Part shown: positions 23,736-25,417 of the stretch, piece after piece
Layout: every line of letters starts with the position of its first letter
Numbering within the stretch: position 1 is the first letter of the stretch
DNA from: Candidatus Poribacteria bacterium
GTDB taxonomy: Bacteria > Poribacteria > WGA-4E > WGA-3G
Assembly: GCA_965197475.1 (NCBI GenBank)
Contig: CBDANF010000003.1
Coordinates: 2,528,001 to 2,592,000, forward strand
DNA length: 64,000 nt
Direction: 5' to 3'
Position numbers and translations under genes: made by a program
Notes under the pieces: model-generated
What the model was told of the DNA's origin: nothing
The model's database searches: none
What the model saw: only the letters and a program-made list of their open reading frames with translations

Positions 23736-24536
23736 ATGAACCGCAAGAAGGATACCGCTTACGGTATCACTCGGCTCGAATCCAAGAATGCCAGAGCCGC
23801 GATTATTCAGAAGATTTCAGCAGACTTTAATCTAATGCCTCTCGTTGCTGAAGCCTACTATAAACAGATTTCCACCTACTTTGAACAACACGCCGATGTG
23901 CACCTGACATCAGGGCAAATCTGCTACGAGGCAGTCGCCGCAGAGGAACCCGCAGGTAAACATATCGCTTTAGCGAAAAAAGTTTCCTGTCGGCTAACTC
24001 TCAATGACACAAACGCCGATCTTGAAGTCTTAGCGAATTATGGTCTCGCAGGACTCAGACGGCATCGGATCCTCCGATTGACCCAAGAAGCTTATGACCA
24101 AGATGCCTTACTGAGCTACGAGGATTTAGCTGTATTATTAACCACCAGTCCTGCTACAGTCAAACGCGACATTCGACACTTGAAGCAGGATGGGTATTTC
24201 GTTATGACGCGCGGGACGAAACACGACATGGGCCCCGGCACTTCTCATAAAACCCAGGTCCTGGAGTTATATTTCAAAGCCTATACCTTCACCGAAATCG
24301 AGAAAAAGACGAACCACAGCGAACGAGCTGTCTACCGCTACTTGAAAGACTTTACACAAGTCGCTACGCTCCATCATCAAGGCTTTCCTAACGCACAGAT
24401 ACGCCTGATCACCCATCTATCTGACCGGTTGATCCGCGAGTATCTCTCACTCTATGAGGAATACCAACACACAGATCGCATGACCCAACTCCTTCACCCA
24501 GAACCTGAGGACACAAAAAAGGGGGACCTCTCATGA
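23736..24536 (+). CDS. DUF1670-like protein A
   Basis: GGAGG RBS; EAYDQDALLSYEDLAVLL, TRGTKHDMGPGTSHK, TNHSERAVYRY; multiple HTH-like segments. Confidence 0.8.
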   Translation: MNRKKDTAYGITRLESKNARAAIIQKISADFNLMPLVAEAYYKQISTYFEQHADVHLTSGQICYEAVAAEEPAGKHIALAKKVSCRLTLNDTNADLEVLANYGLAGLRRHRILRLTQEAYDQDALLSYEDLAVLLTTSPATVKRDIRHLKQDGYFVMTRGTKHDMGPGTSHKTQVLELYFKAYTFTEIEKKTNHSERAVYRYLKDFTQVATLHHQGFPNAQIRLITHLSDRLIREYLSLYEEYQHTDRMTQLLHPEPEDTKKGDLS

Positions 24537-25417
24537 GCAAACCTCTAACCCGCACGCAAATCAACGAGAAGAAATTCAGACGCATCAACGATAAGTCCCT
24601 ACGACAGTTGCTCATTCACCGCTTTCTCAATGACTATGGTTATGACAAAGGCGAAGTCACTGCCACCGCCATTGTTGATGATATTCTTAAGACCGTTGAA
24701 GACTATTTCGTGATTACCCTTCCTTTGGAGAAACTCGCCACCGGCGATCAACTCCCGGATGAGCGTTTCTTGAGTTATGGACAACTCGTTTGGATGGCCG
24801 TCCCTATTGAAGAGCATCCAGAAAGAGGAAAGTCCATCGTCAAAACCCGCATGAAACCCGTCATCCTGACTTACCTCGCCGCAGAGGATATTGAATCCTT
24901 TCGCAACGGTTTCACCTCCCGGCAATTGCGGATCAATCGCTTGGTCCGCTGGTGTCATCAAGCTTATGACCAAGGGGCATTATTGACACAACTCGACTTG
25001 GCAGTTTTGCTCAATGTCTGCGATGCCGTTGTCTGTGATTATGTTAATGAATGGCAAAAAACCACTGGAGAACTCTTGCCCACCCGTGGCAATATCCATG
25101 ACTTATCGGGGGCTATTACCCATAAGAAAGAGATCATAACCCTCTATCTTCAAGGACATCTCACCCCCAGGATTGCCGCAAAGACCAAACACTCTAAGGA
25201 GGCAGTTGACCGATACATTCGCGATTATGAGAGCGTCAAAGTCGTTCGGAAAGCAACCGCAGATATTGATAAAATCTCACAGATTACACGACTTTCTAAA
25301 CGCGTCATCTCTCAATATCTCGACCTCATACCGCAGCACCAACTCCAAGCCATAGATGCAGACCTTGCCAATTCAGACTCAAACGATGAAGCCACTCACC
25401 AAGGAGAAGCCCAATGA
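24533..25417 (+). CDS. DUF1670-like protein B
   Basis: ATGA overlap with A; QAYDQGALLTQLDLAVLL, TRGNIHDLSGAITHK, TKHSKEAVDRY. Confidence 0.8.
   Translation: MSKPLTRTQINEKKFRRINDKSLRQLLIHRFLNDYGYDKGEVTATAIVDDILKTVEDYFVITLPLEKLATGDQLPDERFLSYGQLVWMAVPIEEHPERGKSIVKTRMKPVILTYLAAEDIESFRNGFTSRQLRINRLVRWCHQAYDQGALLTQLDLAVLLNVCDAVVCDYVNEWQKTTGELLPTRGNIHDLSGAITHKKEIITLYLQGHLTPRIAAKTKHSKEAVDRYIRDYESVKVVRKATADIDKISQITRLSKRVISQYLDLIPQHQLQAIDADLANSDSNDEATHQGEAQ

Follow-up and report, generated by a model that had tools for sequence, protein, structure and literature searches.

We analyzed a 64,000-nucleotide stretch of a Candidatus Poribacteria genome (assembly GCA_965197475.1, contig CBDANF010000003.1, positions 2,528,001 to 2,592,000; hereafter the window, whose own positions are used throughout) that contains a 2018-bp insertion element at 23633-25650 (+ strand) with a pair of DUF1670 genes as its sole cargo. 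The first gene, orfA (23736-24536, +), encodes a protein of 266 amino acids (aa), A, and the second, orfB (24533-25417, +), encodes a 294-aa paralog, B, with the same domain order; the start of orfB overlaps the stop of orfA by ATGA. The orfA frame opens at 23724 or 23736, with the end at 24536 in both cases, and the ATG at 23736 is most likely the start, with GGAGG 7 nucleotides (nt) upstream and homologues starting there too. Both proteins are full members of Pfam family DUF1670 (PF07900), to which Pfam assigns no function (A, 209.9 bits, E = 4e-62; B, 208.3 bits, E = 1.2e-61; cutoff, 25 bits), and an NCBIfam scan of A and B returned nothing beyond DUF1670 above its cutoffs. A and B are 35% identical over 192 residues (BLASTP E = 1e-27), so their paralogy is not due to chance. 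At this low identity, both keep the motifs TRG..HD, (S/T)HK and HS..AV.RY, as stated in the first-pass annotation of this DNA, which had likened them to the active site of tyrosine recombinases. A profile search with A and B gave 2105 matches at E ≤ 0.001 among 1.84 billion cluster representatives, and homologues often lie on metagenome contigs of ~2.0 kb that hold little beyond the element. The literature that we searched, with supplementary tables outside its scope, mentions neither "DUF1670" nor "PF07900" and includes no paper joining an insertion sequence, type IX secretion, a C-terminal domain and a target site.

The limits of the constant part of the element are those shared by all copies in the same genome (5.7 Mb, three contigs), where 20 left and 20 right ends pair into 20 copies: 18 of full length, one of 1789 bp with an internal deletion and one 450-bp remnant made up of the ends only. 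The same ends were present in 32 full-length copies from other Poribacteria genomes. The copy in the window has at least 99% identity to nine others, and the 39 PF07900 matches of the genome all fall inside copies of the element, with 0 internal stops. The 13-bp terminal inverted repeats noted in the first-pass annotation are exact. The left repeat, GTATCAAATGACC (23642-23654, +), begins 9 nt inside the left end and is 100% complementary to the right repeat, GGTCATTTGATAC (25633-25645, +), which lies 5 nt from the right end and has its last base within a stop codon borne by the element. The repeat 13-mer occurs 19 times per orientation in the genome, a count that is compatible with 20 copies, the occurrences not being mapped one by one.

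Of 31 related genomes, 8 contain DUF1670, the number of matches per genome ranging from 0 to 39; such a patchy distribution is that of an insertion sequence. Conservation is highest at the element ends (0.97 to 0.98 identity among 33 sequences), and the coding sequence is better conserved than the leader and the 3' untranslated part. The ratio of nonsynonymous to synonymous substitution rates (dN/dS) was 0.10 for A and 0.08 for B against 32 relatives, with dS at about 0.5 to 0.6, and we found no further conserved open reading frame (ORF) in the element. The purifying selection, the best-conserved ends and the lack of other cargo show that the gene pair is the functional cargo. We used an 11-sequence DUF1670 alignment as the query to search for the loci of relatives, and elements of different phyla have no conserved cargo besides the gene pair.

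Every copy has the same layout at its target. Read along the neighboring gene, it is penultimate codon / AAA TAG TATCAAATGACC ... GGTCATTTGATAC AAACTAT / AAR TRR. The sequence upstream encodes the end of a type IX secretion system (T9SS) type A sorting domain (...TRKMLILK) in 18 of the 20 copies, and all but one of the 32 full-length copies from other Poribacteria genomes (31/32) likewise lie at a sorting-domain gene end. The right end always adjoins the target coding sequence, and all copies have one orientation. The target gene in the window encodes a 2065-aa T9SS-sorted protein (25645-31842, -), the sorting domain of which matches TIGR04183 with E = 8.5e-9 and 35.3 bits (cutoff, 23). Its last Lys codon and stop are the AAA TAG carried by the element (25645-25650, -; present in 20/20 copies), and the displaced original pair, AAG TGA, lies at the far end of the element (23629-23634, -), where 19 of 20 copies have AAR followed by TAA, TAG or TGA. 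The genome contains 52 sorting-domain gene ends, and all 18 occupied ends read AAA TAG, while only 5 of the 34 unoccupied ends do, most reading AAG TAA. Since occupied ends have AAA TAG and the far end has AAR plus a stop, the element brings in a Lys codon and a stop and displaces the original pair. The host protein is unchanged by the insertion.

At the point of exchange, the element (AAATAG) and the target (AAGTAA or AAGTGA) can share only AA. Insertion therefore either duplicates nothing and uses a core of ≤2 nt or duplicates 2 bp. In the second case, one of the two terminal TT dinucleotides (23633-23634 or 25649-25650) may have arisen by duplication of the target AA; we found no target duplication beyond this possible AA, and the target is conserved on one side only. 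The genetic picture drawn in the first-pass annotation, with 13-bp arms, no real target duplication and a paired A and B (for which fused A-B forms exist), therefore agrees with what we found. A related element of 1855 bp from another lineage has the same design, with a protein A that is 63% identical and five identical copies, three of them at sorting-domain ends. Several copies with the same ends at different places, and terminal inverted repeats in subterminal positions (9 and 5 nt), are features that define an insertion sequence. A recognizable transposase of the DDE, DEDD, HUH, serine or tyrosine type was not found by Pfam and NCBIfam, which gave DUF1670 and weak helix-turn-helix (HTH) matches. 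We consider the element a previously undescribed site-specific insertion sequence.

Some copies depart from the common form. The two deleted copies (C3:94114-94563, 450 bp; C3:434719-436507, 1789 bp) are both at sorting-domain gene ends, and in contigs of two public runs, X2 and X6, a joint from 23669 to 25619 (a 1949-bp skip) marks a similar internal deletion. Two further copies (C2:1160542-1162562 and C3:845184-847204) have the same 25-nt left flank and differing right flanks, one of which is not a sorting-domain end; this suggests recombination between copies or an assembly join.

Deleted forms of this kind (450 bp, 1789 bp and the joint in X2 and X6) were presumably moved in trans, which would suit a non-autonomous element: an unlinked transposase would mobilize it, A and B would be regulators or passengers, and their shared motif would be purely structural or DNA contacting. 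The finding of no catalytic domain in A or B points the same way. We nevertheless consider this explanation very unlikely: strong purifying selection acts on both ORFs, which nearly all copies have kept intact, no cargo other than the gene pair is conserved across phyla, and many homologues lie on ~2-kb contigs with little but the element. The count of the 13-bp repeats (19 + 19), which fits 20 copies without single mapping, also speaks against another carrier element.

We looked for an unoccupied form of the site in the window. For the left flank, relatives were present in 11 of 39 other genomes of the same genus, at an identity of only about 67%, and no empty allele was found among them. The right flank matches paralogues throughout; the best, at 84%, is an unoccupied related gene in genome G003 that ends in TTG AAG TAA, and we rejected it as the empty allele because its downstream sequence differs. 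The flanks of 51 related copies had no adjacent match in the genome that contains the window. We also used 24 public runs, kept as contigs. In the contigs of X1, X2, X3 and X6, the word depth of the element is far above that of its flanks, and internally deleted forms are present; no circle junction or precise-excision joint was found among the matches listed for these four runs. Cover in X3, an RNA library, is no proof of transcription. Flank contigs of X1, X2 and X6 match the window (23400 onward) up to 23635, and those of X1 and X6 run on for 166 and 264 letters that are unlike the window; these diverging contigs may represent another allele of the site.

AlphaFold (AF2) models of A and B had predicted local distance difference test scores of 89.1 and 86.8. 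The model of A begins with helices at the N terminus, continues through a beta-hairpin and a long helix to a winged HTH (residues ~124-165) and ends with two tri-helical HTHs (171-214 and 219-242). We aligned both models exhaustively against 48,161 chains with the structure aligner VIA and obtained only winged-HTH and HTH matches, with Z at most 6.7 for A and 6.4 for B and the N-terminal 100 residues barely covered. Residues 103-165 of A and 128-192 of B match NiaR, BirA, Z-alpha, LexA and other winged HTHs (Z, 5.2 to 6.7; root mean square deviation, 1.7 to 2.8), and residues 169-250 of A and 193-247 of B match sigma region 4, LuxR-type HTHs, DesR, TrpR, the Tn3 resolvase HTH and a small-terminase HTH. 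These Z values are modest and tied, as expected of domains of 50 to 60 residues. Foldseek searches of the PDB (model A) and of viral models gave nothing at E ≤ 0.001, and the ESM Atlas gave only low-score HTH_23 leads (0.80). As modeled, A and B are chains of HTH DNA-binding domains, with the conserved site on the linker and the second HTH. Prediction of an A+B complex scored 0.26 against a mark of 0.32, which speaks neither for nor against their binding.

Within this predicted fold, R159-G160 of A (in PTRG) is aligned to "tvRGt", the wing of a protein of the GntR type (E = 0.098), and D164 lies within a Gly-rich loop. H171-K172 opens helix 1 of the second HTH, H194-S195 is in the turn, and A198-V199-x-R201-Y202 is on the recognition helix. 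The HS..AV.RY segment has subthreshold matches to HTH_28, HTH_23, HTH_29 and the resolvase HTH_7, and one homologue bears a precomputed HTH_7 match. The pattern returns in the third HTH (S229..LV.EY236), which can be aligned with "SerkvrrYLe" from a small HTH protein.

We determined the conservation of individual residues in 90 sequences, namely, A, B and 88 single-domain proteins (245 to 310 aa) from the best 150 of the 2105 representatives. The motifs of A are T158-R159-G160..H163-D164, S170-H171-K172 and T192.H194-S195..A198-V199.R201-Y202, with codons at 24210-24341 (+) (R159, 24210-24212; D164, 24225-24227; H171-K172, 24246-24251; H194, 24315-24317; R201-Y202, 24336-24341). By alignment, the counterparts in B are R185, D190, H197, K198, H220, R227 and Y228, at 25085-25216 (+) (R185, 25085-25087; H197-K198, 25121-25126; H220, 25190-25192; R227-Y228, 25211-25216). 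Conserved residues were R159 (90/90), H171 (89/90), H194 (88/90), Y202 (88/90), G160 (86/90), G166 (85/90), D164 (80/90), K172 (79/90, with Arg in 8 more) and R201 (78/90), and outside the motifs Q122 (88/90), R114 (87/90), Y236 (86/90) and D130 (81/90). The first-pass annotation had called for a family profile, and that profile bears out R159, H171, H194 and Y202 (98 to 100%) but not H163 (His in 29 and Lys in 28 of 90) or S195 (53/90).

To follow the residues through fused proteins as well, we collected all DUF1670 repeats of A, B and the 150 representatives, 195 domain instances in total. The best 150 representatives include 25 two-repeat proteins (480 to 600 aa) and 4 three-repeat proteins. 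Pfam analysis of eight long fused forms (two three-repeat and six other) showed only DUF1670 and HTH families in seven and EamA in addition in one. Among the proteins with fused repeats are P0242-P0246 (930 to 952 aa) and the 25 proteins of 480 to 600 aa, the first repeat of which often lacks the polar site. Among 164 instances filled at all five of the positions R159, D164, H171, H194 and Y202, all five residues are retained in 125, four in 18, two or three in 4, and one or none in 17. All 17 site-less instances are N-terminal repeats of fused proteins with a partner repeat that retains the site, and they still have R114 (17/17) and G160 (16/17). This joint retention and loss points to a single functional site that is needed at least once per protein. 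Judged from these alignments, R159, D164, H171, H194 and Y202 form one functional site, to which we assign no chemistry.

Substitutions within the site follow a pattern. Residue 202 is Tyr in 150 of 168 domain instances and otherwise Ile, Trp, Leu or Cys, with Phe in 0; other aromatic positions mix Tyr and Phe (position 179, Tyr in 98 and Phe in 27; position 31, Tyr in 67 and Phe in 59). H194 is replaced by Leu, Ile or Val, and H171 is replaced by Arg, Leu, Trp or Tyr. The hydrophobic substitutes would fit a semiburied polar network equally well, whether structural, metal binding or catalytic. By analogy with other HTHs, H171, K172 and H194 are probably neighbors, the start of helix 1 and the turn between helices 2 and 3 adjoining on the DNA-facing edge.

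We compared this site with that of tyrosine recombinases, in which R ... K ... HxxR ... H/W ... Y are spread over about 130 to 150 residues and act on an identical overlap of 6 to 8 bp. In A, R159, D164, H171, K172, H194, R201 and Y202 span 44 residues, the second Arg adjoins the Tyr, and there is no HxxR box; the spacing of 8 from His to Tyr given in the first-pass annotation is the same in our alignment. The exchanged core is at most 2 nt, in contrast to the overlap of 6 to 8 bp. Neither A nor B matched the tyrosine recombinase profile PF00589 at E ≤ 0.1, while the same model found the genome's own recombinase at 1.4e-28. Alignment by hhalign of a 98-sequence DUF1670 profile with the host recombinase, used as a single template, gave a probability of 0.1% over 16 columns outside the motif. 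The Foldseek comparison with the PDB that had been suggested as a check returned nothing at E ≤ 0.001 for model A, and a recombinase fold is absent from the listed structure matches (Foldseek with the PDB for model A, VIA for models A and B), which barely cover the N-terminal 100 residues. We therefore rejected membership in the tyrosine recombinase family on the basis of PF00589, hhalign (0.1%), the HTH fold, the residue spacing and the core of ≤2 nt. The conserved site is not homologous to the tyrosine recombinase active site, and the label "tyrosine-recombinase-like" is unfit for the annotation of DUF1670 proteins.

HD-domain, HKD/PLD, HUH, His-Me and DDE enzymes have alpha/beta cores. We rejected these readings also, because H163 is not conserved, HxH or HxK spacing is missing, and the models have two strands and a wing only.

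What survives of the resemblance to tyrosine recombinases is in the residue types and the behavior of the site as a unit, not in sequence or profile or in the structure matches listed. The first-pass annotation had named a fold of tandem HTHs without a clustered site, or a nonconserved Tyr, as evidence against its idea; the fold is indeed tandem HTH only, but the Tyr is conserved (150/168, with 0 Phe) and the R/D/H/H/Y set is all or none. One explanation is therefore convergence on a metal-free phosphoryl-transfer center of the tyrosine recombinase or type IB topoisomerase kind, with Y202 of A and Y228 of B as nucleophiles on the 13-bp arms. We hold this to be unlikely. The residue types (R159, D164, K172, H171/H194, R201 and Y202) fit the recombinase set, Y202 is never Phe in 168 instances while other aromatics mix, the site is kept or lost as a unit, and the insertion is site and orientation specific with ≤2 bp shared and no real duplication. 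Topoisomerases IA, IIA and IIB place their catalytic Tyr on a winged-helix (CAP-like) domain, in IIA beside an Arg, and the Topo VI-A winged helix is among our tied weak matches (Z, 5.7 and 6.3), although aligned to the first winged HTH and not to the Y202 helix. Against this stand the lack of homology to tyrosine recombinases, a crossover of ≤2 nt instead of 6 to 8 bp, a target sequence conserved on one side only and the replacement of Y202 by Ile, Trp or Leu in degenerate repeats. Moreover, Y202 belongs with V199, I203 and F206 to the hydrophobic side of the recognition helix and is at the Trp/Tyr position of related HTH families; in the consensus of these families (..vSrsTVyRWl..), Y202 falls on the conserved aromatic position.

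The genome, which is 92.7% complete, has a single PF00589 match (on contig C3), a 203-aa tyrosine recombinase, the shortness of which suggests that it lacks an N-terminal core-binding domain. This gene bears on a further explanation, in which A and B only target or activate and a host DNA-breaking enzyme (the host's own tyrosine recombinase or a topoisomerase) is recruited. Such a role would suit proteins made of HTH domains only, and an element-borne activator of a host Xer enzyme has a precedent in XafT of the TLC satellite phage, which is reported to work with XerCD (PMC6744903, PMC9226527); in that system, a small element-encoded HTH protein without a catalytic domain suffices for integration. 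The presence of one PF00589 gene in the genome is in keeping with recruitment, but at 203 aa it is the sole host tyrosine recombinase found. XafT is reported to act at dif via XerCD, whereas the target of our element is not dif-like and its exchanged region is ≤2 nt. DUF1670 proteins are found across bacterial phyla and in Methanosarcina, so that a single shared partner would have to be universal, and a near-invariant polar site that is lost as a unit exceeds the usual need of DNA recognition. Recruitment of a host enzyme is, in our view, rather unlikely.

The reading that we favor is that A and B do the work themselves. A hetero-oligomer of A and B would bind both 13-bp arms of the element as well as the 3' end of a T9SS sorting-domain gene. 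Insertion would take place in one orientation between the penultimate codon and the final Lys codon, a new AAA-TAG would come from the element, and the conserved site would take part in DNA breakage and joining. We put the chance that A and B recognize the arms and the gene end and insert the element themselves, with the conserved site joining in breakage and joining, at about one in two. The ATGA overlap and the two- and three-repeat fused proteins suggest joint action of A and B; we infer that action, the binding of arms and target and a part for the site in breakage and joining beyond gripping DNA.

Several observations weigh against this reading. Pfam, NCBIfam, Foldseek, VIA and the ESM Atlas detected no catalytic fold or motif of a known nuclease, transposase or recombinase, and catalysis by A and B is for that reason something that we infer. 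Related genomes and the matches listed for the contigs of public runs gave neither a true empty site nor a circle junction or product of excision. Y202 and H194 change to Ile, Leu, Val or Trp in degenerate repeats, which suits a semiburied structural network no less than an active site. A single loss or a few losses may account for all 17 degenerate repeats, so that the P values of the association overstate independence, and the spatial clustering of the conserved residues rests on general HTH geometry, not on model distances.

To our knowledge, well-studied insertion sequences all carry a recognizable DNA-cutting enzyme. The DUF1670 element family is widespread, clearly active and very precise, though it encodes only two HTH proteins. 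Either A and B hold an unrecognized catalytic site, or they hijack a universal host enzyme, and each of these outcomes would be new to biology. As far as the alignments go, the obvious candidate for such a site is the all-or-none R/D/H/K/H/R/Y set. A stronger form of the favored reading, which we offer tentatively and at less than even odds, is that DUF1670 is a new class of DNA recombinase or transposase, with an active site of R159, D164, H171, K172, H194, R201 and Y202 on an HTH scaffold, and that A/B cuts and rejoins DNA at a 2-nt core within the last codon of T9SS sorting-domain genes. If true, this would be a sixth transposase chemistry or scaffold beside DDE, DEDD, HUH, serine and tyrosine. 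Insertion that is base exact, orientation specific and gene sparing is also of interest for targeted DNA-insertion tools.

The element shares features with several known systems. Like XerC/XerD, Cre and lambda Int, it shows conservative-looking insertion that is specific for site and orientation, 13-bp inverted arms, two paralogous subunits and an Arg/Asp/Lys/His/Arg/Tyr set; unlike these enzymes, DUF1670 has no likeness in sequence or profile, no catalytic-domain fold among its listed structure matches, a set that spans 44 aa on HTHs, a core of ≤2 nt and a one-sided target. IS110 and IS1111 elements are similar in their site and orientation specificity, subterminal inverted repeats, absent or very short duplication and very short core. 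IS110 uses a DEDD transposase and a bridge RNA, whereas A and B match no DEDD transposase and Rfam gave no match at E ≤ 1 over 23400-25900, a region that includes the element. We also rejected a guide RNA in the 240-nt 3' untranslated part, the fold of which had a z score of only -2.0 against shuffles and which is less conserved than the coding sequence.

IS630/Tc1-mariner elements have short terminal inverted repeats and a 2-bp duplication (TA in IS630, possibly AA here), and HTH_23, HTH_28 and HTH_29 are the types found at the N termini of their transposases. Unlike those transposases, A and B have no DDE domain, and the target is a long specific gene end and not a dinucleotide. Tn7, directed to attTn7 by TnsD, likewise uses a conserved coding 3' end as a safe landing mark, inserts in one orientation and leaves the host gene working. 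It inserts downstream of glmS with a 5-bp duplication and requires TnsABC and TnsD, whereas the element described here enters the last codon, rebuilds that codon and encodes two HTH proteins.

The leader of the element folds into a stem. One strand (23651-23661, +) is made up of CCATGAG and the inner half of the left repeat, and the other, CTCATGG-AGGTC (23721-23732, +), includes the Shine-Dalgarno sequence of orfA. Its minimum free energy was -33.1 kcal/mol (z = -4.97), and the pairs are kept in 28 to 30 of 30 sequences, without compensatory change. Protection against read-through by leader stems is known from other insertion sequences, and by analogy this stem probably blocks the translation of read-through transcripts.

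In the 3' untranslated part, 25530-25549 is 90% identical over 20 nt to 25296-25315, the orfB codons for ..SKRVISQ.. of the third HTH, and this likeness may go back to an old event in which the end of the gene was duplicated. Downstream of the element lies a GmrSD-like restriction gene (21827-23632, -), one reading frame broken by a single in-frame TGA at 23324-23326 (..LLGKRL*KKNYK..) beside a poly-A run, which reflects either a pseudogene or a sequencing error.

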